Part shown: piece after piece, positions 1 through 52,091 of the stretch | How positions within the stretch are numbered: the stretch's first letter is position 1 | How the letters are laid out: the number at the start of each line of letters is the position of its first letter | Origin: Candidatus Woesearchaeota archaeon | GTDB taxonomy: Archaea; Nanobdellota; Nanobdellia; Woesearchaeales; GW2011-AR4 | Assembly: GCA_018303625.1 (NCBI GenBank) | Contig: JAGVXV010000010.1 | Location: 13,411 to 77,410, forward strand | DNA: 64,000 bases | Reading direction: 5' to 3' | Notes under the pieces: model-generated | The model's database searches: none | What the model saw: only the letters and a program-made list of their open reading frames with translations | Told to the model about the DNA's origin: nothing | Made by a program: the position numbers and the translations under genes

Positions 1-158
1 GAATTAGGCATAGTCAAGCGCACAAGGAATATTGGAAACGCAAAACTTTACAAATTAAACCTTTCAAATCCATTTGCCAGAAAAATGGCTGACTTGTTTG
101 ACACTTTGGTTATAGAGCCCTTGAATAAGAGAAAGAAAGTGGTTGTGAGGCATTGATT

Positions 159-779
159 TTATTTATTCTTAAGCCTATAATATGTTAAACGACCTATAAC
201 AAAACCTATTAGTGTTCCGCCAATATGCGCAAAAATATTAACATTAGTCTTATTGTTAGCAAATGCCATCCATAATAAAAAAAGAAGCAGCACTATGCCA
301 GTAATTCTTCTTCTTAATGGAATTTCTTTTAAAAAACAGAGCAAAAAAATTATTAATCCAATTAACGAGAATGCGATGCCAGAACTACCTAAAAAATATC
401 CTGCATTGCTCCCCATTTTTATGCTATACCAATAAGCAATCAAGGTTATCCAAGGTGTGATTAAAACTACACGTAACAAATAATATCTCGCCAATTCTTC
501 CCTCTTTATTTGTTGAAGCAATAAAAACAAGATTGTTAAACAAAGTAAAATAATGACTGTATTGGAAAAATAATGTTGAAAATCATAATTAATAAAATCT
601 TTAGTATATATTTGCCAAAATGAAAAATTATTCCGGTTTAAGGCTAATTGTTCTTTGTAATCTTGAAAAAATATATACAAGATCGACATTATTATTGGCA
701 AGATTAAAGTAAAACTAAATTCTTTGGAGTTAAATTTAAATGATTTTCTCATATTAACTAGAATTAACCATCCTATCAA
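159..779 (-). CDS. Rhomboid-family intramembrane serine protease (polytopic membrane protein)
   Basis: 206-aa multi-TM ORF. It has a 'GSSGIAFSLIG' (GxSG-like) motif and a downstream 'AHIGGTLIGF' (AHxxGxxxG) motif, typical of rhomboid catalytic Ser/His helices. The alternative start M10 (about 752) would remove the overlap with the ispG stop. Confidence 0.55.
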   Translation of the reverse strand: MIGWLILVNMRKSFKFNSKEFSFTLILPIIMSILYIFFQDYKEQLALNRNNFSFWQIYTKDFINYDFQHYFSNTVIILLCLTILFLLLQQIKREELARYYLLRVVLITPWITLIAYWYSIKMGSNAGYFLGSSGIAFSLIGLIIFLLCFLKEIPLRRRITGIVLLLFLLWMAFANNKTNVNIFAHIGGTLIGFVIGRLTYYRLKNK

Positions 780-1809
780 TCTCCTTCATCAGCGTCTCAA
801 CAATTTTCTCTTTCTCAACCTTTCCAATTATCTTTCCATCCTTGTACAATAAATTGGTGTTTCCAGCCCCGCCTACAATTCCCAAATCAACCTTTTTGCT
901 TTCTCCCGGGCCGTTGACAGCGCAGCCCATAACTGCAACATGAATGGGCTTCTTTATTTTTTCAGTTTTCTGCTCCAGCTCCTCAACCATTTTGATTACA
1001 TCAACATGAGTTCTTGCACATGTAGGGCATGAAGTAACTTCAACACCATCATTTCTTAAGCCCAGGCTTCTCAATATCAGTTTTGCAACCCTTACTTCCT
1101 CTTTGGGCTCCTCTGACAATGAAACACGAATTGTGTCGCCAATTCCCTCTGACAATAAAATTCCCATGCCCATAGAGCTTTTTACAGCCCCCGGAACTTT
1201 GCTTCCCGCTTCTGTAACACCCAAATGCAACGGATAATCTTTCTTTTGCGCAAAAATCCTGTAGGCCTGAACCATCCTCGGCACATCAGAAGCTTTCAAA
1301 GAAACAACAATGTCATAAAAATCCAAGTTTTCCAAAATTTTCACATGCCTTAAAGCGCTTTCTGCCATACCTTCCGCGCTGTAGCCGTATTTTTCAAACA
1401 AATCGCGCTCCAAAGAGCCGAGATTAACACCAATTCTCATCGGCAATCCGTATTCTTTTGCAGCATCAACAACCGCCTTAACCCTATCCTCTTTTCCAAT
1501 ATTTCCGGGATTAATTCTTAATTTATCAACATACTTTGCAGCTTCCAATGCAATCCTATAGTCAAAATGGATGTCTGCAATCAAAGGAAGGTTTATGTTT
1601 GCCTTAATTTCCTTCAGGGATTTTGCTGCCTCCATTGTAGGGGCTGAAACCCTTATTATGTCGCATCCAATTTCCTCAAGCTCAAGAATCTGCTTTACGG
1701 TTGCATTAATGTTAGTTGTATCAGTTGTGGTCATTGATTGAATAGCAATAGGGTTATTGCCCCCTATTTTTACATTCCCTATTTTAACTTCTCTTGATTT
1801 CCTTCTCAT
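754..1809 (-). CDS. ispG: 4-hydroxy-3-methylbut-2-enyl diphosphate synthase IspG/GcpE, bacterial type
   Basis: 351 aa, collinear with bacterial IspG over its full length: 'IAIQSMTTTDT', 'IADIHFDYRIAL', 'RINPGNIG', and C-terminal 'CPTCAR...GCAVNGPGE' [4Fe-4S] cysteines. Confidence 0.85.
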   Translation of the reverse strand: MRRKSREVKIGNVKIGGNNPIAIQSMTTTDTTNINATVKQILELEEIGCDIIRVSAPTMEAAKSLKEIKANINLPLIADIHFDYRIALEAAKYVDKLRINPGNIGKEDRVKAVVDAAKEYGLPMRIGVNLGSLERDLFEKYGYSAEGMAESALRHVKILENLDFYDIVVSLKASDVPRMVQAYRIFAQKKDYPLHLGVTEAGSKVPGAVKSSMGMGILLSEGIGDTIRVSLSEEPKEEVRVAKLILRSLGLRNDGVEVTSCPTCARTHVDVIKMVEELEQKTEKIKKPIHVAVMGCAVNGPGESKKVDLGIVGGAGNTNLLYKDGKIIGKVEKEKIVETLMKEIDRMVNSS

Positions 1810-1829
1810 TTTAAGAATTTATGATAAAT

Positions 1830-2255
1830 CTATTTTCTTGCCAGATTTATTATCGGATTTCTGCTTTCAAAGCCGGCATAAATCTCATGCCAATGCCTTA
1901 TCGATTTTTCCCCCAGCTTCCAGCATAAAAAAATATCGCGATTTTCGAACTTATAGTAAAAATCAACCAAGCCCAGTTCAAGGTCTTTCAGCAGGCATCC
2001 CATGCTTTCGAGCTCGTCCAATTTCCTGTAAAACTCGTAGGAGAACTTGTGGAATTCCCTGTTCAGTTTTGTGACGTGCCTCAGGTGGGCGTAATTTTCC
2101 TCCTCAACCTCTATTTCAACGCCTTCCAATAAATCCAATGCATTGCTCAGCTGCCTCAGCCTTCTAACAATCTTCTCTATTTTAGGCAATAAAGTCTCAG
2201 CTTTATCAATTGTAAAATAGCTTTTTGCTTCCTCTGCCTCGATAAAATCCCTCAT
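1830..2255 (-). CDS. hypothetical protein
   Basis: 141-aa ORF with balanced composition, divergent from the L1 gene. No recognisable motif. Confidence 0.35.
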   Translation of the reverse strand: MRDFIEAEEAKSYFTIDKAETLLPKIEKIVRRLRQLSNALDLLEGVEIEVEEENYAHLRHVTKLNREFHKFSYEFYRKLDELESMGCLLKDLELGLVDFYYKFENRDIFLCWKLGEKSIRHWHEIYAGFESRNPIINLARK

Positions 2256-2389
2256 TGATTTGAATAAATCTTTGTTGTTTATAAAGTTTTTTAATACTTA
2301 TTTTAAAAAATTCATAACATTTATATATAATAATCTTATTCCAAAAGCCAAGCAATCCCGCTATACTACTTCGGTAGGAGGGCAGAGTT

Positions 2390-3202
2390 ATGGAAAAGAA
2401 CCAAGTAACTGAAGCGTTAAAGAGAGCAAAGGAAGTTTCTTCTAAAAGGAATTTTAACCAGAGTGTTGACCTAATCATAAACCTAAAAGGCTTGGACTTA
2501 AAAAAGCAGGAGCAGCAGCTGGACATATTTGCAAACCTGCATTACAGCAGGGGTAAAAAAATATCTGTCTGCGCCTTGATAGGAGCCGAGCTTCAGGAGC
2601 AGGCAAAGGCATGCGACGAGTTTATTCTTGTGGATGATTTCGCAAAATTCAGCAAGAAAAGTGAAATTAAGAAGCTGGCAAACAAGCATGATTTCTTTGT
2701 TGCGCAGGCAACAATAATGCCGAAAGTGGCTGCAACATTCGGAAGGGTTTTGGGCCCAAGGGGAAAAATGCCCAATCCGAAGATAGGCTGTGTCGTGCCT
2801 CCAAATGCCAACCTGAAGCCATTGTACGAGAAGCTGCAGAAAACCATGAGGATAATGACAAAAGGCAATCCTATTATACAGTGCTCTGTCGGGAAGGAGG
2901 ACTCCAGCGAGGAAGAAGTTGCAGACAATGCCATGACAATTTACAGCACGGTATTGCAGGCTTTGCCTAACGAAAAGCAGAACATAAAAGATGTTTACCT
3001 GAAGTTGACAATGGGCAAGGCAATCAAAATCGGGGAGAAGGCAGAGGAAGAGGAAACAGGTAAGAAGACCAGGAAAAAAGCAGGCAAAGAAAAGCCGAAG
3101 GAATCGGGCGAAGAGAAAAAAGCTGATGCGAAAAAAAAAGAAAAGCCGAAAAAAGAGAAAAAAACAAATGATAAACTCCCCAATAATGAAGATAAAAAAT
3201 AA
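2390..3202 (+). CDS. rpl1: 50S ribosomal protein uL1 with Lys-rich C-terminal extension
   Basis: The N-terminus 'ALKRAKEVSSKRNFNQSVDLIINLKGLDLKK' and 'MPKVAATFGRVLGPRGKMPNPK' are typical of L1. A GGAGG SD precedes the ATG. The roughly 50-aa K/E-rich tail is atypical. Confidence 0.9.
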   Translation: MEKNQVTEALKRAKEVSSKRNFNQSVDLIINLKGLDLKKQEQQLDIFANLHYSRGKKISVCALIGAELQEQAKACDEFILVDDFAKFSKKSEIKKLANKHDFFVAQATIMPKVAATFGRVLGPRGKMPNPKIGCVVPPNANLKPLYEKLQKTMRIMTKGNPIIQCSVGKEDSSEEEVADNAMTIYSTVLQALPNEKQNIKDVYLKLTMGKAIKIGEKAEEEETGKKTRKKAGKEKPKESGEEKKADAKKKEKPKKEKKTNDKLPNNEDKK

Positions 3203-3244
3203 TCAAAACTGGCAATTGCGGACTTAAAAAACAAAAATCATTGG

Positions 3245-4420
3245 ATGAAAATGGCTCACGTCGCTGAATATAAGAAGAGGATTGTGGAAAATATAGTAAA
3301 GCTCGCCAAGGAATATCCTATAGTCGGAGCTGTAAACATGGAAAACCTGCCGGCGCCCCAATTGCAGGCTATGAAGGCGCAGCTGAGGGGCAAGGTAGTC
3401 CTGGTAATGACAAAAAAAAGGCTCATAAAGATAGCCCTGGAAAAGCTGAAAAGCGAAAGAAAAGACATTGAAAAGCTGGAAGAGCACCTGAATGGCATGC
3501 CTGCCCTCATCTTCACGGGAGAAAGCCCCTTCAAGCTAAGCAGAATACTGCAGAAAAACAAGAGCAAGGCTCCTGCAAAAGGAGGCCAGATTGCTCCAAG
3601 GGATATTATGGTTAATAAAGGCTCCACAGGATTTGCCCCTGGCCCAATTATCGGGGAATTGGGAATGGTCGGCATCAAGACAGGAGTCGAGGGAGGGAAA
3701 GTCGCTGTCAAGGAGGATACAGTAGTTGTGAGGCAGGGCGAGCAAATAAAGCCAAAAGTAGCAGAGATTCTGACAAGGCTTGGCATAGAGCCCATGGAAG
3801 TAGGCCTGGATTTGATGGCTGCCTATGAAAATGGGCTGGTATACACCAGAGACATACTGACAATTGACGACCAGCAATACCTTAGCATGCTTAATAATGC
3901 GGCAAAAAGCGCATTTAATTTATCTTTCAACGCAGCTTATCCAACAAAGGACAATATCCAGCTGCTGATATCAAAGGCGTTTAATGACTCAAGGGCCTTG
4001 GGCTTAAGCCAGGAAATCATCGACAGCGGCATTGTCGAGGAATTGCTTGCAAAGGCTGAAAGGTCTCTGCTGAGCCTGAAAAATACTGCAAAAATAGATG
4101 TTCCTGAAAAAATTTCCCAGGACGGTAAAGAAACAGAAGCTAAAAAAGAAGCAAAAGCAAAGCACAAAAAGGCTGGAAAAATAAGCCATGAAACAGACAA
4201 AAAAGTTGAAGCTTTGCCGGAAGAAAAAGAGAAATTTCCACAAGAAGAAGTAAAGAAAGAGGAAGCAAAGGACGCAGTAAAAAACAAAGAAGAAGAGATT
4301 GTAAGAGAGGAACTGGATGAGCTGGAGCATGATATTCTGAAAAATAAAGAGGAAAAAGAGCGGGAGCAAATTGAGGATTTAACAAAAGAATTGGTAAGAA
4401 AAGGCACATTAAGAAAATAA
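3245..4420 (+). CDS. rplP0: Ribosomal stalk protein P0 (uL10) with long K/E-rich C-terminal extension
   Basis: Archaeal P0 N-terminal domain ('KKRIVENIVKLAKEYPIVGAVNMENLPAPQLQ', 'GMPALIFTGESPF'). Its position between L1 and P1 fits. The C-terminus ends '...LVRKGTLRK', not the usual GLxALFG peptide. Confidence 0.9.
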   Translation: MKMAHVAEYKKRIVENIVKLAKEYPIVGAVNMENLPAPQLQAMKAQLRGKVVLVMTKKRLIKIALEKLKSERKDIEKLEEHLNGMPALIFTGESPFKLSRILQKNKSKAPAKGGQIAPRDIMVNKGSTGFAPGPIIGELGMVGIKTGVEGGKVAVKEDTVVVRQGEQIKPKVAEILTRLGIEPMEVGLDLMAAYENGLVYTRDILTIDDQQYLSMLNNAAKSAFNLSFNAAYPTKDNIQLLISKAFNDSRALGLSQEIIDSGIVEELLAKAERSLLSLKNTAKIDVPEKISQDGKETEAKKEAKAKHKKAGKISHETDKKVEALPEEKEKFPQEEVKKEEAKDAVKNKEEEIVREELDELEHDILKNKEEKEREQIEDLTKELVRKGTLRK

Positions 4421-4455
4421 ATTGATTTTGATAAAATAAACTAGGAGGGGTATAA

Positions 4456-4761
4456 ATGGAGTACATCTATAGTGCAATGCTGCTGCATAAAGCAGGGCAG
4501 CAGGTTAATGAAGCGAATGTGAAGAAAGTGCTCGAGGCTGCCGGAGTCAAGGTAAATGATGCCAGGGCAAAAGCTTTGGTGGCAGCTTTGGAAGGAGTGA
4601 ATATAGACGAAGCTATAGAGAAGGCTGCTGTTCCTGTTGCGCCAGTGGCTCAAGCTGCTGAAGCAAAAGCTGAAAGCAAGGTTGACGAAAAGAAAAAAGC
4701 AGAGGAAGAAAAGAAGGGCGAGGAGCAGGCAGCGGCAGGCTTAGGGGCGCTTTTCGGTTAG
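4456..4761 (+). CDS. rpl12: Ribosomal stalk protein P1 (aL12)
   Basis: 101 aa starting '[30 protein letters not shown]' with an Ala/Glu-rich linker and the conserved C-terminal '[13 protein letters not shown]'. A strong SD 'AGGAGGGG' lies upstream. Confidence 0.9.
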
Positions 4762-4799
4762 TTTTTTTGTTCAAGAATGGGCAGGGAACGTGACACGGC

Positions 4800-5657
4800 A
4801 TGCAAAAAGAGAACGAGCTATTCAGCAGGCTAAATGAAATAAAGAAGGAAATAAACGCCTTGAAGAACAAGCTTAATGAAATTGACAAGGAGAAGGAATC
4901 GTGGTTTGGCAAAAAGGAAGGATGCAGCAAAAAAATAAGGGGCCTTATAATCTCTGTCAGGGAAAAAAGGGGCAAGAGGGACAAGCTGACAAAAAAGGTC
5001 AGGGATGACAAGGAAAAAAGGAATGCCCTCAATGAAAAAATAAAAAATTCTATTTCTGAAATCAAAAGGCTTAATCAGGAGAAAAATTCCCTGATAAAAA
5101 AACACGGCTTCAAGGAGGATCCTTTCAGGATCAAAGGCGAAATTGACAGGCTGGAGCTGAAAATAGAAACAGAGGCCATGCCCTTTGATAAGGAGCAGAA
5201 AATAACCAAGCAGGTAAAAGAGCTGAAAAGGAGATTTGACGAATCAAAAATTTTGGGCGATATTCTGGAAAAAGGAGGCAGCTTGGGCAAAGAAGCCTAC
5301 AACCTGAAAAGCGAAGCTGAGATTCTGCATGAGTCTATACAGGAAAATGCGAAGCAAAGCCAGGCAATACACGAGGGGATAATTGCAGATTCCGGGGAAA
5401 TCGATAAGCTTAAGCTAAGCGAAGAGGAGTCTTTTTCAAAATTTTTGGAATTGAAGAAAAGTTTCAGCGAAATTAATTCCGTGCTAAAGGAAAAGCTCGG
5501 GGAATACAGCAGCCTAAGCTCGGAAATGCAAAAAATGCGGGATGAAAATGAGGAGAAACTAATCAGGGACAAGGAAGAGTTCATCAGGGAAAAAATCAAA
5601 AAGGGGCAGAAACTGACTACAGAAGATTTATGGATATTCCAAAACCAGAAAAAATGA
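4800..5657 (+). CDS. Archaeal coiled-coil protein (COG1340-like), function unknown
   Basis: 285-aa K/E-rich ORF with heptad-like repeats throughout and a C-terminal 'KGQKLTTEDLWIFQ' motif. No enzymatic motifs. Confidence 0.4.
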   Translation: MQKENELFSRLNEIKKEINALKNKLNEIDKEKESWFGKKEGCSKKIRGLIISVREKRGKRDKLTKKVRDDKEKRNALNEKIKNSISEIKRLNQEKNSLIKKHGFKEDPFRIKGEIDRLELKIETEAMPFDKEQKITKQVKELKRRFDESKILGDILEKGGSLGKEAYNLKSEAEILHESIQENAKQSQAIHEGIIADSGEIDKLKLSEEESFSKFLELKKSFSEINSVLKEKLGEYSSLSSEMQKMRDENEEKLIRDKEEFIREKIKKGQKLTTEDLWIFQNQKK

Positions 5658-5843
5658 TTATTTTTTTAAGAATTCCGTATAGCCGCACTGGCCGCAAAAC
5701 TCCCTGTTGGCATGCTTTGCCATGAAAGTTCCCGGGCCGCATTTCGGGCAATACCTGTTTTTCCTCTCCAGCTTATCGCCTGCTACCTTGTAGATCTTCC
5801 ATCCCTGCAAAGGCTTTTTTGGTTTTTTTTTCTTTTTTGCCAT
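5658..5843 (-). CDS. rps27ae: 30S ribosomal protein S27a (eS31), zinc-ribbon
   Basis: 61 aa with a K-rich N-terminus followed by '[27 protein letters not shown]' (C4 zinc ribbon), typical of eS31. Confidence 0.85.
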
Positions 5844-5845
5844 TT

Positions 5846-6136
5846 TTACTCTTTAGCTTCCTTAGCCGGGGCTTTTTCTTTTTTCGGCTTTATCTCAATG
5901 CTGCCCATCTCTTTCTCATCATTGTAGAGATAGCTTTCCACGCTTGCTTTCTTTAAGCCAAAATCAGTGTAAATGTGCTTGACAACAACCAAATTCTCAT
6001 TGGCGTTCAGCAAAGAGGCAATCTTTGATTTGGTTTCATTTTTTGATGGAGTTGAAGCGCTGAAATTTACCTCTGAGATTATTTTCGTCCTTGACAGCAA
6101 TGGCTCTTCCTTCTTTTCGATTATCTTCAGATCCAT
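5846..6136 (-). CDS. rps24e: 30S ribosomal protein S24e
   Basis: Internal start '[23 protein letters not shown]...[19 protein letters not shown]' matches the S24e fold. The 47-aa N-terminal extension in the ORF track begins at GTG and is unlikely to be translated. Confidence 0.8.
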
Positions 6137-6141
6137 AGAAC

Positions 6142-6327
6142 TCACCTGACTTTTATTGCATATTCTCCTTTTGCAGCTAATCCTATCTTTTTTGCTATAA
6201 GGGACTTGTCCGCGTCCAAAATGTGAAGCCTTCCCTGCCAGCTTACGGAAAACTGGTTGCCTTTGCAGACAGGGCACTCGCTACCTTCAACAAATATCTT
6301 GCATTTTTTGCAGACTTTTTTTTTCAT
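6142..6327 (-). CDS. spt4: Transcription elongation factor Spt4 / RNA polymerase subunit E''
   Basis: 61-aa Zn-ribbon 'CKKCKIFVEGSECPVCKGNQF' followed by 'GRLHILDADKSLIAKKIG', typical of Spt4. It sits in the conserved position between rpoE' and S24e. Confidence 0.75.
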   Translation of the reverse strand: MKKKVCKKCKIFVEGSECPVCKGNQFSVSWQGRLHILDADKSLIAKKIGLAAKGEYAIKVR

Positions 6328-6914
6328 TTTTTATCCTTGTCTTTTCCTTTTTGCTCTTTCTTTGGTTTTGGAATTTCTTTCTGCTCAGGATGGTCTATCC
6401 AGTCCAGCCTTCCAAGGCCCTGCTGCCTCATTGTAAGTCCAAGCTTTGGATTATTGCTGTCTTTGAATGAAACTGCTATTATGCGCGCCCTGCATATGTC
6501 ATTTACCTTCAATACCCTTTTGCTCTCCTTGCCCGCTAATGTCTTGTCCTTGCTGAAGCTTACGAAATCGTCCATTGTCTGGCTTACATGTATCATGCCT
6601 TCTATAGGCCCTAGATTCATAAAAGCGCCGAAATCCACGATATCTTTTATTCTGCCAGTAATGACTTCCTGCAATTCAGGCTTGAATGTAAGCAGCTCAA
6701 AGGTTGTTTCATAGTAGGAAGCGCCGTCTCCGGGTATGATTATGCCTTCACCGATTTCCTTTACATTGGATACATCAATGACTATTCCCATGTTTTGGGA
6801 AATGAAGCCTTCATATTTCACCTTTACCCTTTTTACGATAGCCTCCTCAACAGGAAGGCCAAACATGTCCGGAGGCACCCGTATATGGTCCTTTAGCTCA
6901 ATTTTGTAAAACAT
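6324..6914 (-). CDS. rpoE: DNA-directed RNA polymerase subunit E' (Rpo7)
   Basis: The N-terminus 'MFYKIELKDHIRVPPDMFG' and an S1-like domain 'GRIKDIVDFGAFMNLGPIEGMIHVSQ' are typical of RpoE'. It ends in a K/D-rich tail. Confidence 0.85.
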   Translation of the reverse strand: MFYKIELKDHIRVPPDMFGLPVEEAIVKRVKVKYEGFISQNMGIVIDVSNVKEIGEGIIIPGDGASYYETTFELLTFKPELQEVITGRIKDIVDFGAFMNLGPIEGMIHVSQTMDDFVSFSKDKTLAGKESKRVLKVNDICRARIIAVSFKDSNNPKLGLTMRQQGLGRLDWIDHPEQKEIPKPKKEQKGKDKDKK

Positions 6915-6951
6915 ATAAAAAACACCTTATCGTGAGAATTTTGCTCATTAT

Positions 6952-7344
6952 TTAAACTTTTCCCTCAAATATGAGGTACTTCTTTTGCCTTAAAGTTATT
7001 ATGGGTATGCTTTTCGCTTTCAGCAATCTTTTTAAATCCGCGTCCTGCGTTGCCGCTATAAAGCCGCTTTCCGCGGTATTTACTATTGACATGTCCGTGC
7101 TGACGCCATCTTCGGTTTTTACGATGCCCAGTTTCTTCAGACTGACAAGTTTCAGGCCGAGCTTTGCAGCGTCCCTGTCTTTTCCCTTCTGCTTTTTTAT
7201 GATATTCTCCAATTCCATTATTGTCTTGTCCAAAATAAAAATCTGGTAGCTGAAATTGCATATCCTTTCAATTTCAGAGAAGATATCTACCTTGAATTGC
7301 GCAGGTATGAGCAGGAAGTTTGTGTCGAGCAGTATTTTTTGCAT
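6952..7344 (-). CDS. PIN-domain protein, the conserved archaeal partner of the rpoE'-spt4 cluster
   Basis: 'MQKILLDTNFLLIP...' carries the PIN N-terminal acidic motif, plus later 'DADL' acidic residues. Its position upstream of rpoE' is conserved. The longer ORF-track N-terminus is less likely. Confidence 0.6.
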   Translation of the reverse strand: MQKILLDTNFLLIPAQFKVDIFSEIERICNFSYQIFILDKTIMELENIIKKQKGKDRDAAKLGLKLVSLKKLGIVKTEDGVSTDMSIVNTAESGFIAATQDADLKRLLKAKSIPIITLRQKKYLIFEGKV

Positions 7345-7593
7345 ATTTCCTGGTTTTTTTCCCGCTTTAATAAATTTTTTCATTAAATTGAGCCAGAGCC
7401 ATGTTAAGGCAGGCACCAATTCATGGCTCAATAAGCAAAAAGAATCGCAAGGGGGTGGGGAACATAACTAAATATGTAAAGAGAAACAATAAACCTATTC
7501 CCACTTAATTTTAGAAAAAATAAATTCAATAAAAAATAATAAAAAATCAAAAAATTGAATAGCTTTTTATAATTAAAACATTTCTTAAGGGAT

Positions 7594-8736
7594 ATGAGGG
7601 GCTTGGCAATAACTGAAAGGGGCATTGAGGATATCTGCGCCAAAGAGGTAAAGGAGCTGATAAATGCGGATGCTGAAATTAGAGAAAGCTGCGTGGCATT
7701 CAATGTTAAGAAACTGCCCGATTTATGCCTTTTGTGCTACAGGGCGCAGTCTGTAAGCCGAATTCTTTTTTTATTTGAGGATTTCAGCCTGGATGGTGAT
7801 CTTTTCGGGAAAATAAACGGGAAAATAGGGAAAGTTGACTTTTCCGGCTGGCTGGATAAAGGCACCAGCTTTGCCGTCAGGTGCCTGAAAGACGGAAATG
7901 TGGCAAGTGCTGCAGAAATTGAAAAGAAGGCAGGGGAATTTGTGATTGACAATATAAAAAAGAATAAAAAATACCGGCAGGAGGTTAATTTAATCCAGCC
8001 GGATGTGCTCTTTGTGGTTTATATTAATCAAGGCCGCTGCTATTTTGGGATTGATTTCTCCGGCTTTGATTTGAGCAAAAGAGGCTATAAGATTTTCATG
8101 CACCCCGCCTCATTGAAGGGAACCATAGCTTATGCCTTGGCAAGAATAGCGGAGTTTCGCAAAAAAGACTCTTTATTAGACCCTTTTACAGGCTCTGGCA
8201 TGATACCGATAGAAGCTTCGTTATTCGCATTGAATTTTCCGGTTAATTTTTACAATAAGGACAAGTTTGCTTTTTTGAAGTTAATTCCGCTTAAGAATTT
8301 TGATTTTGGCAGGTTCTTCAGGCAGGCAGATAAGAAGATAAGAAAGGAAAAATTGAGTGTTTATGGCTATGACAATTCCATGAAATTTGTGCAGTATGCA
8401 AAAAAGAATGCCAAAATCGCCGGGATTGACAAGCAGCTCAATTTCAGCAGGGTTGATGTCGAGTGGCTTGACATAAAATTCAAGAAGGGCAGTGTTGACA
8501 AAATCGCGGCTGACATGCCTGCGCTGTCAAAATACAATAAAGATATCGAGAAGGCCTATAAGGAGCTTTTTTACCAGTCGGACTACATATTAAAAAAAGA
8601 CGGCATTCTTGTTGTCTTGGTCCGGGATTTAAGCCTGATAAAGGGGCTTTGCGCGGAATACAATTTCAAGACCATCGAGCAAAGAAAGGTTTACAGCGGA
8701 AAGCAGGAGTTATTGGCAGTTAAGCTGAAAAAGTGA
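7594..8736 (+). CDS. THUMP-domain tRNA (guanine-N2) methyltransferase (Trm11/Trm14-like) with variant motif IV
   Basis: N-terminal ferredoxin-like and THUMP region, then a Rossmann methyltransferase with motif I 'LLDPFTGSGMIPIEA'. Motif IV reads 'AADMPALSK' instead of the (D/N)PP(Y/F) consensus. Confidence 0.65.
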   Translation: MRGLAITERGIEDICAKEVKELINADAEIRESCVAFNVKKLPDLCLLCYRAQSVSRILFLFEDFSLDGDLFGKINGKIGKVDFSGWLDKGTSFAVRCLKDGNVASAAEIEKKAGEFVIDNIKKNKKYRQEVNLIQPDVLFVVYINQGRCYFGIDFSGFDLSKRGYKIFMHPASLKGTIAYALARIAEFRKKDSLLDPFTGSGMIPIEASLFALNFPVNFYNKDKFAFLKLIPLKNFDFGRFFRQADKKIRKEKLSVYGYDNSMKFVQYAKKNAKIAGIDKQLNFSRVDVEWLDIKFKKGSVDKIAADMPALSKYNKDIEKAYKELFYQSDYILKKDGILVVLVRDLSLIKGLCAEYNFKTIEQRKVYSGKQELLAVKLKK

Positions 8737-8757
8737 GAAAGATATATAAATGGGATA

Positions 8758-9063
8758 TTGCATGATGGCGATATGCTTGAAAAAAAGAGGAAAGCAAGCA
8801 TTTTCGAGAAACTGCTTCTGGTAGTAGGGCTATTAGTTCTTGTCATAGGCTACTTCCTCATAAACCGCGTCTTTATCGCCGATAATTATACATTATCATG
8901 GGGATTCCTGCAGACAGTTTTCCTGTGGCTTCTGATGGTCATTTTTATTGTCGTGCTGGCGATAGGGGAGGATATAAAGGAAAGCATTTTGTCCGACCAG
9001 TTCGAGGAAATCAGGAGCCTGAGGAAGGACATAAACGACATTTTAAGGGGAAAAAAGAGTTAA
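8758..9063 (+). CDS. small membrane protein, hypothetical
   Basis: 101 aa with two predicted TM helices and a charged C-terminal tail. Confidence 0.35.
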   Translation: MHDGDMLEKKRKASIFEKLLLVVGLLVLVIGYFLINRVFIADNYTLSWGFLQTVFLWLLMVIFIVVLAIGEDIKESILSDQFEEIRSLRKDINDILRGKKS

Positions 9064-9082
9064 TTTTATAAACTAGGAAATT

Positions 9083-9416
9083 CTACTTTGCAGAGGGACT
9101 GGCGCTTAGCTGTCGGCAGAGATACTAAATCTGCTTTGCAGATTTATTCAATCTTCTGCTGAGGAAAGTCCATCCACACCTGCCTTGCAGGAAGCAGCCA
9201 CTTTCGGAAGAAAGTTCCAGCAATGGAAGTAAACCGCACAGAAACGAGACCTCCCTGGCTAAGGATGATAAACGCGAAGTTTCCCGCGAGGGAAATGAGT
9301 TAACCTTTTGACGTTGCCAAGGAAAGGATGAAACGGCGAGCACTGGCTTGTGCAACCTTTACAGGGCTTAGTTAAATGCTAAGGCAGATGATCGCAACCT
9401 TATGTTGCAAAAAGCA
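9083..9416 (+). ncRNA. rnpB: RNase P RNA (archaeal), approximate ends
   Basis: A roughly 330-nt GC-rich island in AT-rich DNA with no credible ORF. It contains the universal P4 motif 'GAGGAAAGTCC' (about 9161-9171) and a CR-V-like 'ACAGGGCTTAG' (about 9361-9371). The 5' 'CTTTGCAG' pairs with the 3' 'TTGCAAAAAG' as helix P1. Confidence 0.7.
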
Positions 9417-9466
9417 TCTGACAGAAGATGGCTTATGCCAGTCCCATTTTTCAATATTCGGTTAAA

Positions 9467-9640
9467 ATGAGCAATGATAGGGTTTCAATACCATCAGGCA
9501 TGGGGGGCCTTGTAAGGTATTTTGACGAGTACAAAAGCAAAATAAAATTCAAGCCCGGCCATATCGTGATTTTCAGCATAGTGGTCATTGTCATAATGAT
9601 ATTTCTTTACAGCTACGGAAACAGGCTGCTAGGCATATAA
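9467..9640 (+). CDS. secG: Preprotein translocase subunit Sec61beta (SecG)
   Basis: 'MSNDRVSIPSGMGGLVRYFDEYKSK' followed by a single C-terminal TM helix, the hallmark 'GLxRYxDE' motif of archaeal Sec61beta. An internal start is preferred over the ORF-track start. Confidence 0.65.
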   Translation: MSNDRVSIPSGMGGLVRYFDEYKSKIKFKPGHIVIFSIVVIVIMIFLYSYGNRLLGI

Positions 9641-9641
9641 A

Positions 9642-9977
9642 ATGATACCAGGAATGAACCCGAGAAAGATGCAGCAGATGATGCGCAAGATGGGTATTTC
9701 CCAGCAGGAAATTGACGCAACCGAGGTAATAATCAAAACAGCCGAAAAAGAGCTTGTCATCTCGAATCCGCAGGTAAGCAAGGTAAACATGATGGGGCAG
9801 GAAACATTCCAGATAATAGGGAATGTAGAGGAAAGAAGCAGGGAAATAGACATAAGCGATGAGGATATAAGGACAGTGATGGAGCAGGCCAATGCCGATA
9901 AAAAAAGCGCGAAAGAGGCCATTGAAAAAAACAACGGCGATTTGGCTGCGGCAATCATGGAATTAAAGTCTGACTGA
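9642..9977 (+). CDS. nac: Nascent polypeptide-associated complex protein (NAC alpha homolog)
   Basis: An NAC domain ('ELVISNPQVSKVNMMGQETFQIIGNVEE') plus a C-terminal UBA-like 'DEDIRTVMEQANADKKSAKEAIEKNNGDLAAAIMEL'. Confidence 0.85.
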   Translation: MIPGMNPRKMQQMMRKMGISQQEIDATEVIIKTAEKELVISNPQVSKVNMMGQETFQIIGNVEERSREIDISDEDIRTVMEQANADKKSAKEAIEKNNGDLAAAIMELKSD

Positions 9978-10011
9978 GAAAAGCTTTATATTTTCAGGCT
10001 GGTTTATCCGT

Positions 10012-10497
10012 ATGGAAAAATTCCAGGAATTTGGAGGTTTGGCAAGGGAAAAGCTGCAGCTTGCAGAGCATATACTCGCAATAACCTACCCGATGGTTAA
10101 AGATGCCCGCCTGCTGCTGGCTGTTGCTGAAAACCTGTTTTTGTCTTTGACATACGCTATGAGCTCAGTTCTTTACTACGAGAGGCTGTTTAACCGCATA
10201 CCGCCATTCCAGGAAAATTTTGCAGCAAAATTCCATTTGTTTGAAAAAAAATGCATCGGAAAGCATGGGATAAGCAGGGAGCACATAAGGCTGATACAGG
10301 AAGTAAGGGACATAGTCATGCAGCACAAAAAAAGCCCTGTCGAATTCCAGAGAAAAGGCCAGTTTGTCATATGCGATGAATATTTTAGTATCAGGGTTAT
10401 ATCAGCAGATTTTTTGGAAGATTATGTTTCAAAAGCAAAATCATTTATAGATGGCATACTTACCACAGTAAGCAGGGATGAGAGCGTATTAGCCTGA
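10012..10497 (+). CDS. hypothetical protein (tandem paralog A)
   Basis: 161 aa with no known motif. It shares a C-terminal signature with the downstream ORF ('REHIRLIQEVRDI...FLEDYVSKAKSFI' vs 'EEYRRHVTMISNV...LKEDYETTKNFI'). Confidence 0.4.
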   Translation: MEKFQEFGGLAREKLQLAEHILAITYPMVKDARLLLAVAENLFLSLTYAMSSVLYYERLFNRIPPFQENFAAKFHLFEKKCIGKHGISREHIRLIQEVRDIVMQHKKSPVEFQRKGQFVICDEYFSIRVISADFLEDYVSKAKSFIDGILTTVSRDESVLA

Positions 10498-10507
10498 TTT
10501 TTTCAGA

Positions 10508-10972
10508 ATGGAAGAAGCCTTGAATAACGCAGTGCAGGAACTGAAGAGGGTAGACCATTTGTTCTATGTAAGCCTCAAATACACCCGGACAGTGGATATG
10601 ATGAGGCACATGATTGAGAGATTGATAAGCACCATAGACTTCGGCACAGAGTCTTTGCTCAAGCACGCAAAGGAGAATAAATTAATAGCTTCGATACCGA
10701 GCAACGCGGGATTGAGGTCCGAGCTGGTGAAAAAGGTTTACCATGACAACCAGGAGATAATAAGCTACATAAATTTTTACATGAAACTGAGGAAAATCCT
10801 CAGGGCTGACCATAGCAAGAGGGAGGAATACAGAAGGCACGTTACAATGATTTCCAATGTCGGCGGGGAGATTGTCGAAGTGAGCATAGACACGCTGAAA
10901 GAGGATTACGAAACAACTAAAAACTTCATAAAGCTGGTTAAAAAAACACTTTACGGGGAAGAAGAATCCTGA
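10508..10972 (+). CDS. hypothetical protein (tandem paralog B)
   Basis: 154 aa, co-directional with and 10 nt downstream of paralog A. It has the same length class and a shared C-terminal motif. Confidence 0.4.
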   Translation: MEEALNNAVQELKRVDHLFYVSLKYTRTVDMMRHMIERLISTIDFGTESLLKHAKENKLIASIPSNAGLRSELVKKVYHDNQEIISYINFYMKLRKILRADHSKREEYRRHVTMISNVGGEIVEVSIDTLKEDYETTKNFIKLVKKTLYGEEES

Positions 10973-10974
10973 AA

Positions 10975-11487
10975 ATGGATAAGCTGAAAAAGAGGCTGAA
11001 AGAAAAGGGGTGGGCCGAGCAGGAAATAGATAAAACTATAAATATTGTCAGGGAGGCTAAGGAAGGGAAGCACGCGGCAATAAAAATCCTTGACAAAGCA
11101 GTCTACTGGCTCGCTTTGGTTATAGCCGTTATAGGCAATTTTATCATTTCCGTTGCTTTAATACCGCCGCTGATGTTTTTGAAATCAGTCCAGCTGTTTT
11201 TGGTTACCATGATTCTTGGCGCCTCTTTTGGTCTGCTGTTCGAACTGCTTATAAGGAGCATAGAGCATCTTGAGGCAAGGCACCATATCTTTCTGGGCAT
11301 TTTAATCCCGCTCATAGCCATAATAAACGTTTTTATCATCACTTTAGTCGCAAATGGCTTTGAGAAAGCCTTGAATATTAATAATCCGCAAAACCCGTTT
11401 ATTGTTGCAGTTGTTTATGCCTTTTCATTCATACTGCCTTTTGCCTTCTATAAACTCGTGCTGAAGAAGGGCTATTATTCCGGCTAA
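10975..11487 (+). CDS. membrane protein, hypothetical
   Basis: 170 aa with a hydrophilic N-terminal roughly 40 aa and then 4 predicted TM helices. It is tightly packed in the same operon. Confidence 0.4.
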   Translation: MDKLKKRLKEKGWAEQEIDKTINIVREAKEGKHAAIKILDKAVYWLALVIAVIGNFIISVALIPPLMFLKSVQLFLVTMILGASFGLLFELLIRSIEHLEARHHIFLGILIPLIAIINVFIITLVANGFEKALNINNPQNPFIVAVVYAFSFILPFAFYKLVLKKGYYSG

Positions 11488-11488
11488 A

Positions 11489-12052
11489 ATGGCCTGCAAT
11501 GTCTTTATCATCCATGGCGCATACGGGCGCCCTGATGAGAACTGGTTTCCATGGCTGAAGGGGGAATTGGAGAAGTTGGATTGCCGGGTTTTTATTCCTA
11601 AATTCCCAACGCCTGAAAAGCAGACAATGAAAAAATGGCTGAAGGCTTTTGAAAATTATGGAAAATATTTAAATGAGGATTCTATTGTTGTCGGGCACAG
11701 CCTGGGCTGCGCATTCATCCTGAATCTGCTGGAAAATAAAAAAATCAGGGCTGCATTTTTGGTCGCCGCATATTACAAGTTCATAGGCAATGATTATTTT
11801 GACACTATAAGCAAGACATTCATGAAAAGCTTTGATTGGGAAAAAATAAAAGGCAATTGCGGCAAATTCTTCATTTACCATTCTGACAATGACATGTACC
11901 AGCCGCTTTCCATGGCTCATGGCCTGACTGATAACTTGAATGCCAGATTGAAAATAATAAAAAATGCCGGGCATTTCAATGAGAAATCCGGCTATGTGAA
12001 ATTTGAGGCCCTGCTGCATGATTTAAAAAGGCTTGTCGCAAAAGATTTATAA
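11489..12052 (+). CDS. alpha/beta-fold serine hydrolase (RBBP9/YdeN-like)
   Basis: 'FIIHGAYGRPDENWFPW', a nucleophile elbow 'GHSLGC', and a C-terminal 'NAGHFN' His motif. About 190 aa, typical of this esterase family. Confidence 0.6.
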   Translation: MACNVFIIHGAYGRPDENWFPWLKGELEKLDCRVFIPKFPTPEKQTMKKWLKAFENYGKYLNEDSIVVGHSLGCAFILNLLENKKIRAAFLVAAYYKFIGNDYFDTISKTFMKSFDWEKIKGNCGKFFIYHSDNDMYQPLSMAHGLTDNLNARLKIIKNAGHFNEKSGYVKFEALLHDLKRLVAKDL

Positions 12053-12077: not shown

Positions 12078-12171
12078 GGTGGCCGTAGTTTAATGGTAGA
12101 ATAAGCGGCTGTGGATTGCTTTGTTTGCAAACAGAGCCCGCTTGGAGTGGGTTCGATTCCCACCGGCTGCC
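12078..12171 (+). tRNA. tRNA-His (GTG) with about 22-nt intron in anticodon loop; G-1 encoded
   Basis: Acceptor GTGGCCG/CGGCTGC, an extra 5' G-1 opposite discriminator C73 (a His identity element), U8A9, D-arm GTTT/GAAT, and anticodon stem AGCGG/CCGCT with loop CTGTGG|intron|. The T-arm is GTGGG-TTCGATT-CCCAC. Confidence 0.7.
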
Positions 12172-12258
12172 CTTTTTTATATAAAATGGCGGGTTCGTTT
12201 CAGCTTTGGTGATTTTTATTTTTTTCCGCAAGCTTTTTAAATACCCCCATTATCCTTA

Positions 12259-22825: not shown

Positions 22826-23105
22826 TAAGCGGGAGGACGCGCTTGAAAATGGGCAGGATCCTCGCTATCAGTTAACCCTGAGCTTTTCTTGGCCCTGTTT
22901 TCTGTAAGCACCGATGCCAAAGGTTAAGGCTGCTTCCTTCCGGACCTGACCTATTTCCCAAAAACACCAGCCAAACAGGACAAAGCCTCATTGTCGAGCC
23001 CAAGACTGATAGTTTTGGAAAGTGCCTCTTTTCCAGCTTCACCCTGTGTAAAGCGTATTCACAGTTACAGGAGAGCGCTAACCTCCCAGCAAAGTCCTCC
23101 CATAA
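22826..23105 (-). ncRNA. ffs: Signal recognition particle RNA (7S/SRP RNA), approximate ends
   Basis: The minus strand contains 'GGTCAGGTCCGGAAGGAAGCAGCC', identical to the universally conserved helix-8 (domain IV) segment of 4.5S/7S RNA. The 5' 'GGGAGGAC' pairs with the 3' 'GTCCTCCC'. An oligo-T run follows the 3' end. The island is GC-rich with no plausible ORF. Confidence 0.8.
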
Positions 23106-43236: not shown

Positions 43237-43264
43237 TTTTTACCAAAAAGAAAATTAATTAAAA

Positions 43265-47616: not shown

Positions 47617-48231
47617 ATGTTGGGGATTGTATTGTATATTGCGTTAATCTTTATTTTATTGCTAGCTTTATTCCTCCTAAACTTCTACCGCGACCCTGAA
47701 AGAAAAATACCAAAAGGAAATAATATTGTTTCCCCGGCGGACGGCAGAATAATCAGAATAATAAAAATAAATTCCAATGAGAAAATAAAAATAAAAAAGG
47801 GAATTTTGGGAAAGATTGAAACATTGACAAAAGATGTCGCAAAGGAATGCTATCTGGTCTCAATTTTCATGTCGCCTTTTGATGTCCACATCAACAGGGC
47901 TCCAATAGATGGAAAAATAAAAAAAATAAAATATGAAAAAGGCAGGTTTTTCTCCGCCTTCAATTTTGAAAAATCGCTGAAAAACGAAAAAAATGAGATA
48001 TTAATAGAAAGTAAAATCGGCAATGTCAAGGCAATCCAGATAGCCGGTTTTCTTGCAAGGAAGATAAAATGCTTCGTGAAAGAAAATCAAAAAATTAATA
48101 AAGGGCAGAAAATAGGCGCGATTGTGTTGGGGTCGCAAGTGTCTTTGGTAATTCCCGCAAAAATAACATTAAAAATAAAAATAGGCGATAAAGTAAAAGC
48201 TGGCTCGACAATAATTGCTGGATTAAAATGA
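47617..48231 (+). CDS. psd: Phosphatidylserine (archaetidylserine) decarboxylase-like proenzyme
   Basis: An N-terminal TM, then 'FYRDPERKIPKGNNIVSPADGRI', 'FMSPFDVHINRAPIDGKI' and the C-terminal 'GAIVLGSQVS'. A small Psd with a GS cleavage-site-like motif. Confidence 0.7.
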   Translation: MLGIVLYIALIFILLLALFLLNFYRDPERKIPKGNNIVSPADGRIIRIIKINSNEKIKIKKGILGKIETLTKDVAKECYLVSIFMSPFDVHINRAPIDGKIKKIKYEKGRFFSAFNFEKSLKNEKNEILIESKIGNVKAIQIAGFLARKIKCFVKENQKINKGQKIGAIVLGSQVSLVIPAKITLKIKIGDKVKAGSTIIAGLK

Positions 48232-48797
48232 ACTCTCAACTCATATTTCTGTCAAACTTCCTCCGCAGCCCGAGGGAAATAGCGGCTGTTGCGCCAAGCT
48301 CAAGGTATGTGGTAGATAAGGTGATTAGCCAGATAGATTTTGGCAAAGCCAGGCTTATAGTTGAGTACGGGCCCGGAACAGGAATTCTGACAAAGGCCAT
48401 ACTTGAAAGGTTAAAGCCCAATGGAAAATTAGTATGCTTTGAGCTTAATTCAAAATTCTGCAGGCATCTTGCAAGCAGCCTTGATGATCCAAGGCTTACC
48501 ATTATCAATGATTCTGCGGAAAAGCTGGACTTTTACCTGGATAAGCTCAAGATAAAAGCAAAAATTGATTATGCGCTGTCTTCCATACCTTTTTTGCTTA
48601 TAAAAGACAGGCGCAAGCACTCCATCATCAGGAAAACAAAGGACAGCCTCGGCAAGAACGGAAAATTCATAGTGTATCAGCAGTATTCGTGGCACATAAG
48701 GAACTACCTGAGCTTTTACTTCAAAAAAATCTCAACGGGATTTGAAATAAGGAATATTCCCCCTACGTTTATCTACAGGTGTGAAAAGGCAGAATGA
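48228..48797 (+). CDS. Small class I SAM-dependent methyltransferase (KsgA/Erm-like fold; phospholipid N-methyltransferase-like)
   Basis: 189 aa. Motif I is 'LIVEYGPGTGILTKAIL' followed by 'LVCFELNSKF'. It lacks the rRNA-dimethylase NxPY motif (it has 'SSIPF'). It overlaps psd by 4 nt and the downstream gene by 4 nt, suggesting a translationally coupled operon. Confidence 0.5.
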   Translation: MNSQLIFLSNFLRSPREIAAVAPSSRYVVDKVISQIDFGKARLIVEYGPGTGILTKAILERLKPNGKLVCFELNSKFCRHLASSLDDPRLTIINDSAEKLDFYLDKLKIKAKIDYALSSIPFLLIKDRRKHSIIRKTKDSLGKNGKFIVYQQYSWHIRNYLSFYFKKISTGFEIRNIPPTFIYRCEKAE

Positions 48798-49831
48798 AGT
48801 TAAAAATACGCAATAGGAAATTTCCAATAACACTGACTTTGCTTAGGGTCCTTCTTGCCCCGATAGTGATGCTTGTTATCCTGTACGAAAGAAAAAACAT
48901 TGCCGCGTTCCTGTTTGTCCTTACAGCGCTGATAGGCTTCTTTGACAGCCTGATTGCGAAAAAAAAGAAAAGGTCGCAGTTAAGGTCGATAGTGGATTTA
49001 TTGGCAGATAAGTTGCTGGTAAATCTTACAGCTATAGCACTTTATTTTAAAGCCGTGCTTCCATTGTGGGTAACCTTGGTTTTTCTTGGCAGAGACCTGC
49101 TGACGGTTTCTGGAGCTTCAATCCTGCTTTACAAGGACAGGAGAAGGGAGTTTAAGCCGACTTTCTCAGGCAGGATTATGCTGTTTTTCCAGATAATGGC
49201 GTTTATCCCAGCCATATTGCAGACAATTGACTGGCTTCTTATTTACATTGCAGTTTTCTTAACCGCGGCATCGGCAGTTGAATGGGCCTTCAAGTCAGAG
49301 TTCAGGCTTGTAAGGAGGACTGATATGGATGAATTCAGGATTTCAAAATTAATAAAATTTTCAGATGTTTTTACATTAACAAATGTAGTTTCCGGGCTGA
49401 CTGCAATACTGTTTTCAGTAACCTACAAGCATAATCTGGCTGCAATAATGCTCGTAACTGCGGTTATTTTTGATTACCTGGACGGAAAAATCGCGCTTTT
49501 GACAAAAACAAGCAACGAATTCGGCAAAGAGCTTGACAGCCTGGCAGACACCATAAGCTTTGGCGTTGCGCCGGCTGTTTTTGGCTTTTCCCTGATACAA
49601 ACGCCGCTGGCGATTATAGCCTTCGCCATTTTTCTTTTTTGCGGCATTTTAAGGCTTGCAAGGTACAATATAATGGAGTTCAAGGGGGAATATCATGGTA
49701 TGCCGATAACACTCAACGGTGTTATTGTGCCTCTGGTTTATTTCCTCAAAATGCCGTTTGACTACTACCCATACCTTTACCTTATATTGAGTATCCTGAT
49801 GATTTCTTCCCTAAGGGTAAAGAAGCTATAG
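48794..49831 (+). CDS. CDP-alcohol phosphatidyltransferase with duplicated domain (N-terminal copy degenerate)
   Basis: The C-terminal half has the canonical 'DGKIALLTKTSNEFGKELDSLADTIS' (D-G-x2-A-R-x8-G-x3-D-x3-D). The N-terminal half has the related 'FDSLIAKKKKRSQLRSIVDLLADKLL'. About 8 TM helices. Confidence 0.7.
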   Translation: MKLKIRNRKFPITLTLLRVLLAPIVMLVILYERKNIAAFLFVLTALIGFFDSLIAKKKKRSQLRSIVDLLADKLLVNLTAIALYFKAVLPLWVTLVFLGRDLLTVSGASILLYKDRRREFKPTFSGRIMLFFQIMAFIPAILQTIDWLLIYIAVFLTAASAVEWAFKSEFRLVRRTDMDEFRISKLIKFSDVFTLTNVVSGLTAILFSVTYKHNLAAIMLVTAVIFDYLDGKIALLTKTSNEFGKELDSLADTISFGVAPAVFGFSLIQTPLAIIAFAIFLFCGILRLARYNIMEFKGEYHGMPITLNGVIVPLVYFLKMPFDYYPYLYLILSILMISSLRVKKL

Positions 49832-51539: not shown

Positions 51540-51548
51540 AGAGGCAAA

Positions 51549-52091
51549 ATGATATTTATTTTAATTGTAAAGGCTTTCTATTTCATGCTTCCGGCATATT
51601 TCGCCAACATGGCCCCCGTTATTGTAAAAAGGCTGTTCAAAAACCTGGCAATTGCTATAGATTCCGGCAGAAGATTTGGCAATAAGCCAATCCTTGGGAG
51701 CAACAAGACGTGGCGCGGCCTGGTTTTCGGGATTATTTTTGCGATTGTCATCTCATTTTTGCAATTTTTATTTTATAATAATAATATTTTTGCGGAAATA
51801 TCTTTGGTGGATTATTCCAATTGGCTGTTATTTGGGTTTTTAATGGGCTTCGGTGCTTTGCTTGGAGACATGACAAAAAGTTTTTTTAAAAGAAGGCTGG
51901 GTTATGCTCCGGGAAAGCCTTTTATCCCGTTTGACCAGCTTGACTTTGTCGTAGGAGCCCTGCTTTTTACTTACCCCTTGGTTAAACTGCCGATAGGGCT
52001 TGTAATCACAACAATTTTGCTGAGTTTTTTTTTAGATATTGCTGTAAACCATATATCCTATTACCTCAAAATAAGGAACGAGAAGTGGTAA
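51549..52091 (+). CDS. carS: CDP-archaeol synthase (CarS)
   Basis: 180 aa with about 5 TM helices. 'GNKPILGSNKTWRGLVFG' and the C-terminal 'PFDQLDFVVGALL' are CarS signatures. Confidence 0.8.
   Translation: MIFILIVKAFYFMLPAYFANMAPVIVKRLFKNLAIAIDSGRRFGNKPILGSNKTWRGLVFGIIFAIVISFLQFLFYNNNIFAEISLVDYSNWLLFGFLMGFGALLGDMTKSFFKRRLGYAPGKPFIPFDQLDFVVGALLFTYPLVKLPIGLVITTILLSFFLDIAVNHISYYLKIRNEKW

Follow-up and report, generated by a model that had tools for sequence, protein, structure and literature searches.

The ispG gene of the 64-kb window (a term used here for the whole stretch of DNA that was analysed) very probably encodes a canonical IspG and adjoins, in the same orientation, a horizontally acquired MEP cluster fixed in a clade of Woesearchaeota (Nanoarchaeota in GTDB), the rest of which is hidden by the window start. 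Because the window starts inside this cluster, ispG is its only visible member; the preliminary description had taken the gene to be lone, an impression that proved to be an artefact of the window cut, since contigs identical to the window carry dxr, ispDF, ispE, and ispH next door.

To judge from its sequence, the open reading frame at 754..1809 (minus strand; ATG start, 351 amino acids) encodes an intact, full-length canonical IspG of bacterial type with predicted catalytic activity. The Pfam GcpE profile PF04551 matches the product end to end (499.8 bits, profile positions 2-342 of 343, cutoff 32), and both NCBIfam IspG equivalogs are matched well above their cutoffs (NF001540, 495.9 bits, cutoff 345; TIGR00612, 449 bits, cutoff 280.25). 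Residues 2-348 are collinear with chain residues 13-360 of the IspG crystal structure from Aquifex aeolicus (3NOY; E = 6e-105), and the N-domain of Bacillus anthracis IspG (4MWA) matches with 335 bits. Both the 3NOY alignment and the precomputed Pfam assignments (GcpE and GcpE_C) indicate an N-terminal TIM barrel followed by a C-terminal [4Fe-4S] domain. Residues C261, C264, C296, and E303 align with the cluster ligands of 3NOY, which are C265, C268, C300, and E307 of the A. aeolicus protein in the numbering of Lee et al. 2010. The ligands are invariant in all 24 archaeal clade sequences, and both ligand motifs are kept in 109 of 112 full-length clade members. The claim of a full-length, intact IspG with all Cys ligands is thus borne out by the NCBIfam cutoffs, the 3NOY alignment, and C261, C264, and C296. 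The window protein is therefore like the A. aeolicus and B. anthracis enzymes in its two domains and CxxC...C...E ligand set; it differs from bacterial two-domain IspG in that no bacterial sequence found exceeds 58% identity to it, its activity being a prediction, and in the location of its gene in an archaeal genome beside an L1-P0-P1 ribosomal operon. It is 100% identical to NCBI protein MBS3102191.1 ("Candidatus Woesearchaeota archaeon") and occurs on 35 contigs. No gene for a ferredoxin or flavodoxin electron donor was identified in the window. Separately, the 541-residue top cluster representative, P0121, was considered as a DUF2203-IspG fusion and rejected; it proved to be an IspG of bacterial type, part of which is duplicated internally, probably through an assembly artefact.

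The MEP cluster runs on leftward past the window edge (1..158), the window beginning 753 nt downstream of the ispG stop codon. Two ENA contigs, L001 (86,448 bp) and L002 (81,287 bp), encode the window IspG and extend past window position 1, their positions 1-11809 corresponding to window positions 11809-1 at 100.000% identity. On these contigs dxr, ispDF, ispE, and ispH are placed 1.4-6.5 kb beyond the window edge, with a prenyl-diphosphate synthase gene and a geranylgeranyl-reductase-family gene also within 8 kb of it. L001 carries, all on the ispG strand, dxr (570.8 bits, cutoff 461), a fused ispD/ispF (IspD 211 bits, cutoff 181; IspF 156.5 bits, cutoff 116), ispE (TIGR00154, 257.3 bits, cutoff 139), ispH (271.1 bits, cutoff 188), and a gene for an IdsA-like short-chain prenyl-diphosphate synthase (209.6 bits, below the equivalog cutoff); the geranylgeranyl-reductase-family gene (163.4 bits, cutoff 158.8) is convergent, and an IS481 transposase gene follows it. 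The GHMP kinase on L001 is IspE, with 257 bits to TIGR00154 as compared to 58.9 bits to mevalonate kinase (cutoff 403). The two contigs diverge sharply from each other 316 nt past the window edge; dxr and ispDF are present in both versions, and the exact continuation of the window's own source contig past the edge is not certain. The MEP genes, which had been suggested to be dispersed elsewhere in the genome, are indeed present in it, but clustered directly beside ispG just past the edge; of the genes proposed for a search, ispH, dxr, ispD, ispE, and ispF were found on L001, whereas dxs was not found in ~73 kb.

Read along L001, the genes stand in the order DUF2203-ispG-rhomboid-(small ORFs, GNAT)-dxr-ispDF-ispE-ispH-prenyl diphosphate synthase, a putative transcription unit, with the convergent geranylgeranyl-reductase-family gene after them. 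Spacing is tight at several junctions (DUF2203-ispG, 20 nt; ispG-rhomboid, 1 nt; ispE-ispH, 25 nt), and the GNAT gene overlaps dxr by 4 nt and ispH overlaps the prenyl synthase gene (IDS) by 26 nt. The rhomboid-family membrane protease gene (159..752, minus strand; Pfam Rhomboid, 44.9 bits) has a GC content of 0.273 (z = -3.4 versus window genes), and a tblastn search with its protein drew a blank at every other locus fetched; the gene is a lineage-specific insertion of low GC content that separates ispG from dxr. Three small ORFs, one of them on the opposite strand, and the GNAT gene lie between the rhomboid gene and dxr on L001. With activities assigned from homology and context, Dxr, IspDF, and IspE would convert DXP to MEcPP, the ring of which would be opened reductively to HMBPP by the [4Fe-4S] cluster of IspG (C261, C264, C296, E303); IspH would then yield IPP and DMAPP, from which the adjacent prenyl synthase would build GGPP-type chains that could enter archaeal ether-lipid assembly. 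The most economical reading of IspG is that it would turn MEcPP supplied by the co-encoded IspF into HMBPP for the co-encoded IspH.

The order ispG-dxr-ispDF-ispE-ispH was observed in ~20 Woesearchaeota/Nanoarchaeota loci (L003-L012, L014, L015, L043-L047, L049, and L051) drawn from MAGs at NCBI, metagenomes of ENA and JGI, and TARA Oceans, at some of which a prenyl synthase gene follows ispH. IspG of the syntenic loci is 73-81% identical to the window protein, and archaeal genes for ribosomal proteins and RNA polymerase flank the loci.

The same loci bear on the supply of DXP. A woesearchaeal Dxs probe, rebuilt from the supplementary alignment of Huang et al., found dxs by tblastn directly upstream of ispG in L011-L016 (56-58% identity), and gave no match in the 64-kb window together with the 9.2 kb added by L001 (~73 kb of genome) or in L002-L010, including the flanks of related loci. 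In L012, L014, L015, L043-L047, L049, and L051, dxs lies between L1 and ispG, and in each of the 16 Dxs-containing loci examined it directly precedes ispG. Every dxs-type context examined has the order PIN_9, RpoE', Spt4, S24e, S27ae, (DUF7121), P1, P0, L1 | dxs-ispG-dxr-ispDF-ispE-ispH, and the window neighbourhood follows this order except that a DUF2203 gene stands exactly at the dxs position. The two near-complete subgroup-J MAGs of Huang et al. also have dxs directly before ispG. Where no dxs adjoins ispG, the upstream gene is DUF2203 or SPP, and a moderately supported split (331/500) sets such loci apart from those of the dxs type, in a tree whose rooting on a long bacterial branch is unreliable for the direction of the dxs/DUF2203 swap.

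Two explanations of this pattern are that dxs has been relocated elsewhere in the genome or that the sublineage lacks it. Relocation is the likelier and also the simpler reading, because dxs is unlinked to other MEP genes in most bacteria. A possible but unlikely variant, which would leave the proposed role of IspG as it is, holds that the pathway in this sublineage has no Dxs and that DXP, deoxyxylulose, or methylerythritol would come from the host or from another thiamine-diphosphate enzyme. It agrees with the presence of DUF2203 where syntenic relatives carry dxs in the gap between L1 and ispG and with the lack of a Dxs match in the window and L001-L010, a search that covered only ~73 kb of this genome. 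At least 120 Woesearchaeota/Nanoarchaeota proteins are related to the Dxs of L015 (at least 68% identity), and of those listed none exhibits the contig pattern of the window organism, L003, L004, or L007; this is a weak test, in that a more divergent Dxs would escape the list, subgroup-J Dxs having just 58% identity with the query. Accession proximity, likewise a weak test, placed none of eight named Dxs accessions near MBS3102191.1 or MBI2134779.1. Gene frequencies in Huang et al. (Fig. 3a source data, PMC8421398) point the same way, with dxs at 0.24 in subgroup J versus 0.38-0.48 for ispG, dxr, and ispH, and at 0 in subgroup H, although MAG incompleteness can depress such values. We regard as doubtful the fuller proposal that a Woesearchaeota sublineage including the window genome runs an MEP pathway without its own DXP synthase, dxs having been replaced in place by DUF2203, the C5 sugar-phosphate precursor being scavenged from a host or supplied by some other enzyme, and the rest of the pathway remaining under selection. 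Were such genomes truly without dxs, theirs would be a salvage-dependent MEP pathway; DUF2203 in the dxs position, and the source of DXP in this sublineage, are what may remain of interest in the locus.

The DUF2203 gene (1830..2255, minus strand; 141 amino acids; Pfam PF09969, 110.3 bits) is co-oriented with ispG, 20 nt upstream of it, and is found upstream of ispG in the window, L001-L004, and L007-L009. A TATA-box-like element read from the sequence, TTTATAAA (2278..2285, minus strand), is centred ~26 nt upstream of the DUF2203 ATG and is a candidate archaeal promoter that would drive a leaderless DUF2203-ispG transcript. A scan for sigma-70 promoters and terminators gave matches at chance level, these being bacterial models irrelevant for an archaeon. 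DUF2203 has ~285 detectable relatives, and its AlphaFold model (pLDDT 86) consists of a long helical hairpin and a small four-stranded beta domain; a structure search with the model returned no informative fold match. In other genomes the gene lies immediately 5' of one for a thioredoxin-domain protein, with genes for a DtxR-type repressor and a multicopper oxidase close by, or it precedes a peroxiredoxin gene. The idea of DUF2203 as an IspG-specific partner was rejected on account of these thioredoxin-domain and peroxiredoxin contexts. IspG is an oxygen-sensitive Fe-S enzyme, and a loose association of DUF2203 with redox-related proteins is offered only as a lead.

A bacterial origin of the archaeal IspG is supported by sequence comparison. 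When one genome of each GTDB species was scanned, with a listing biased by the 8-mer peptide patterns used, nine archaeal MAGs emerged with IspG 75-81% identical to the window protein; beyond these, bacterial sequences reach no more than 58%, the top values being those of Clostridia (55-58%). In a neighbor-joining tree of 151 IspGs (345 columns), the phylogeny against bacterial IspG that had been proposed, the 24 archaeal sequences were monophyletic in 200 of 200 bootstraps. This single clade inside an otherwise bacterial family fits horizontal acquisition, as the preliminary description had suggested and as the literature agrees (PMC8421398, PMC8204110). The sister of the archaeal clade was a Gammaproteobacteria-like group in 100 of 200 bootstraps and Clostridia in 7 of 200, and a Firmicutes donor was thus not independently confirmed despite the highest identities being clostridial. 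GC content of ispG (0.408) equals the mean of window genes (z = 0.01), which argues against a recent transfer, and its GC3 is also typical for the window.

Clostridial loci contain the closest bacterial proteins (IspG 53-57% and Dxr 50-57% identical), and dxr and ispG are linked there as in the archaea, but in reverse order, with dxr ~1.1 kb upstream of ispG (L017, L018, L021, L023, L026, L027, L035, and others); DUF2203 is absent from them. The archaeal cluster has an architecture of its own, because clostridial dxr lies upstream of ispG and is not clustered with ispDF, ispE, or ispH. A transfer from Clostridia in the recent past, at the level of the strain, as opposed to an old acquisition at the base of the Woesearchaeota clade, would account for the top bacterial identities and for the placement of ispG nearest Firmicutes by Huang et al. 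(PMC8421398); it is nonetheless very improbable, given the fully supported archaeal clade with internal divergence down to 73% identity, the opposite gene orders, a base composition fully adjusted to the host genome, and a sister group in the tree that was seldom clostridial (7 of 200 bootstraps). IspG is an old acquisition fixed in the clade, neither contamination nor a recent transfer.

The surroundings of ispG are archaeal. Profile searches identified L1, P0, P1, S27ae, S24e, Spt4, Rpb7-type RpoE', and NAC, the P0 protein carrying the RL10P insert, an archaeal/eukaryotic domain; a PIN_9 protein and a THUMP methyltransferase are encoded nearby, and Rfam models place an archaeal RNase P RNA at 9095-9445 and an archaeal SRP RNA at 22831-23101. 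The earlier reading of the neighbouring information-processing genes as archaeal was therefore correct. A bacterial or chimeric contig, in which a bacterial fragment would be misjoined to an archaeal one, might be suspected from the otherwise bacterial family of IspG and from the abrupt divergence of L001 and L002 near the window edge, but is extremely improbable: the neighbouring genes of L001 recur around the same protein on 22 further contigs of 24 read, the junction of L1 with (dxs or DUF2203)-ispG is shared by diverged genomes of four data sources (NCBI, ENA, JGI, and TARA), ispG does not stand out from the window in GC or GC3, and no bacterial IspG found comes closer than 58% identity. 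We give equally negligible credence to the idea that IspG stands truly alone and has been kept for a second, non-MEP function, for although Pfam and NCBIfam scans found no other MEP gene in the window itself, dxr, ispDF, ispE, and ispH follow on the window-identical contigs, the same cluster is kept in the ~20 related loci, and the catalytic residues are canonical. A second function, which had been raised for the gene, is accordingly not supported; an archaeal IspG clade can be recognised, as had also been considered, but its context points to canonical MEP function and not to a different one.

An MEP cluster with a bacterial-type IspG has already been described for Woesearchaeota, and the window, whose protein is already annotated in NCBI, is one more example. 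Huang et al. 2021 reported the bacterial MEP pathway as the sole isoprenoid route in Woesearchaeota, with ispD/F fused and with ispG and dxr nearest Firmicutes (PMC8421398), and credit Castelle & Banfield 2018 with the same observation. Castelle et al. 2021 found the pathway in 52 Woesearchaeota genomes that form a monophyletic clade, its genes being co-located and near bacterial fatty-acid genes and a UbiA prenyltransferase gene (PMC8204110), and the same was reported for marine Woesearchaeota and Nanoarchaeota (PMC10936187). The present cluster shares with the published one its lineage, co-located genes, fused ispD/ispF, the bacterial affinity of IspG and Dxr, and proximity to bacterial fatty-acid genes (FabD-like in L002, thiolase-like in L004); it differs in having DUF2203 or an SPP gene upstream in this sublineage and, in this strain, the rhomboid gene inserted after ispG. 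A bacterial MEP pathway that supplies archaeal lipid machinery has implications for the "lipid divide" and for the way in which mixed metabolisms arise in DPANN symbionts, a point likewise already published. As to method, the flank has to be checked before a gene less than 1 kb from the edge of a window is described as lone.

Archaea are textbook users of the mevalonate pathway. No mevalonate-pathway gene (HMG-CoA synthase or reductase, mevalonate kinase, etc.) was found in the scanned window ORFs (Pfam) or on L001, and no PcrB or UbiA match representing GGGP or DGGGP synthase was found in the window ORFs scanned or among the L001 genes (Pfam/NCBIfam). Huang et al. describe both synthases as missing from Woesearchaeota (PMC8421398), and Castelle et al. 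2021 place a UbiA gene near MEP genes in some genomes (PMC8204110). The lipid genes of the window, taken together with the prenyl synthase and the geranylgeranyl-reductase-family gene, suggest that the isoprenoids would be destined for archaeal-type phospholipids. A CDP-archaeol synthase gene, carS (CDP-2,3-bis-(O-geranylgeranyl)-sn-glycerol synthase; 51549..52091, plus strand), matches NF003114 with 155.3 bits (cutoff 148) and Pfam CarS-like with 129.2 bits, and its product may be a downstream consumer of MEP-derived isoprenoid. A phosphatidylserine/archaetidylserine decarboxylase is encoded at 47617..48231 (plus strand; Pfam PS_Dcarbxylase, 173.2 bits; NF003685, 207 bits, cutoff 183), and a second CDP-alcohol transferase gene, at 49826-50599, follows one for a two-region CDP-alcohol phosphatidyltransferase (48794..49831, plus strand; two stretches of Pfam CDP-OH_P_transf; TIGR00473, 131.8 bits, cutoff 107). 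The N-terminal half of the two-region protein is weakly pgsA-like, below cutoff, and its C-terminal half resembles pssA/archaetidylserine synthase.

The slot between ispG and the gene for ribosomal protein L1 is occupied in the window by a DUF2203 gene (1830-2255, minus strand), and in otherwise syntenic related loci (L012, L014, L015, L043-L047, L049 and L051) by dxs, the gene for DXP synthase; no dxs was found in the ~73 kb of this genome that was searched. In other genomes (L052-L054, ~5001-6884 and equivalents; L055 and L057), DUF2203 lies directly 5' of a gene for a 493-aa thioredoxin-domain protein, with a multicopper oxidase and a DtxR-type repressor adjoining it, or, in a bacterial context, directly 5' of a peroxiredoxin gene. 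This placement suggests that the association of DUF2203 is redox-related rather than IspG-specific. On the other side of ispG, a rhomboid protease gene (159-752, minus strand) starts 1 nt 3' of the ispG gene, with a GC content of 0.273 (z = -3.4), and its product found no match by tblastn against all other fetched loci. The rhomboid gene looks as if it was inserted recently into the MEP cluster of isoprenoid-pathway genes. Within or next to the cluster in other contigs, a nucleotidyltransferase/HEPN pair separates ispG from dxr in L007 (11227-12233), and an IS481-family transposase follows a geranylgeranyl reductase-family gene in L001 (19821-20684); both are mobile or selfish elements. The public records of several metagenome-assembled genomes with the Woesearchaeota-type cluster (L009, L011 and L013-L016; GTDB genome records) bear the title 'uncultured Methanosarcinales archaeon', in what looks like a taxonomic mislabel.

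L001 and L002, contigs that extend the window leftward, are the same as the window over 12.1 kb and then diverge abruptly from each other at position 12125, which lies 316 nt beyond the left end of the window. Beyond this breakpoint, nucleotide identity between the two falls to ~67% across dxr and ispDF, L001 carries an extra GNAT gene, and L002 carries a FabD-like acyltransferase. The break marks either the replacement of a cassette at the strain level or a chimeric join made in assembly. Bacterial-type fatty-acid/polyketide genes lie within or adjoining the MEP cluster, namely those for the FabD-like malonyl transferase of L002 (14846-15970) and a thiolase-like protein of the related locus L004 (14043-15578), as likewise reported by Castelle et al. 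2021 (PMC8204110). Within the window, a lipid head-group cluster (47617-52091) encodes phosphatidylserine decarboxylase, a methyltransferase, a protein with two CDP-alcohol phosphatidyltransferase regions, a second CDP-alcohol transferase, a PHP-domain protein and CDP-archaeol synthase.

A full-length serpin (39897-41237, minus strand; 412 bits) adjoins two large PKD/Big_9 surface proteins (41344-44278, minus strand); such cargo is unusual in an archaeal genome of small size, and it may be linked to host interaction. Other genes include a membrane H+-pyrophosphatase (57702-59696, minus strand; 882 bits), a YafQ/YoeB-like toxin (45291-45548, plus strand) and a protein that matches GGDEF weakly and in part (37159-38214, plus strand). 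An 86-aa ORF (53095-53355, minus strand) aligns to the Dph2 (diphthamide-synthesis) profile over positions 1-58 of 302 only, and could represent a gene that has been truncated or frameshifted. A 339-aa ORF (61798-62817, minus strand), without match in Pfam or NCBIfam, is flanked on one side by an A/B-type ATPase subunit (62839-63987) and on the other by subunit D (61197-61814). The window also carries archaeal RNase P RNA (9095-9445, plus strand; 121 bits) and archaeal SRP RNA (22831-23101, minus strand; 116 bits), the latter overlapped by a mechanically called ORF (22872-23117) that is probably not a gene. Two tRNAs are over-long, a tRNA-His of 94 nt (12079-12172, plus strand) and a tRNA of 128 nt detected by Rfam only (44363-44490, minus strand), and both probably carry archaeal introns.
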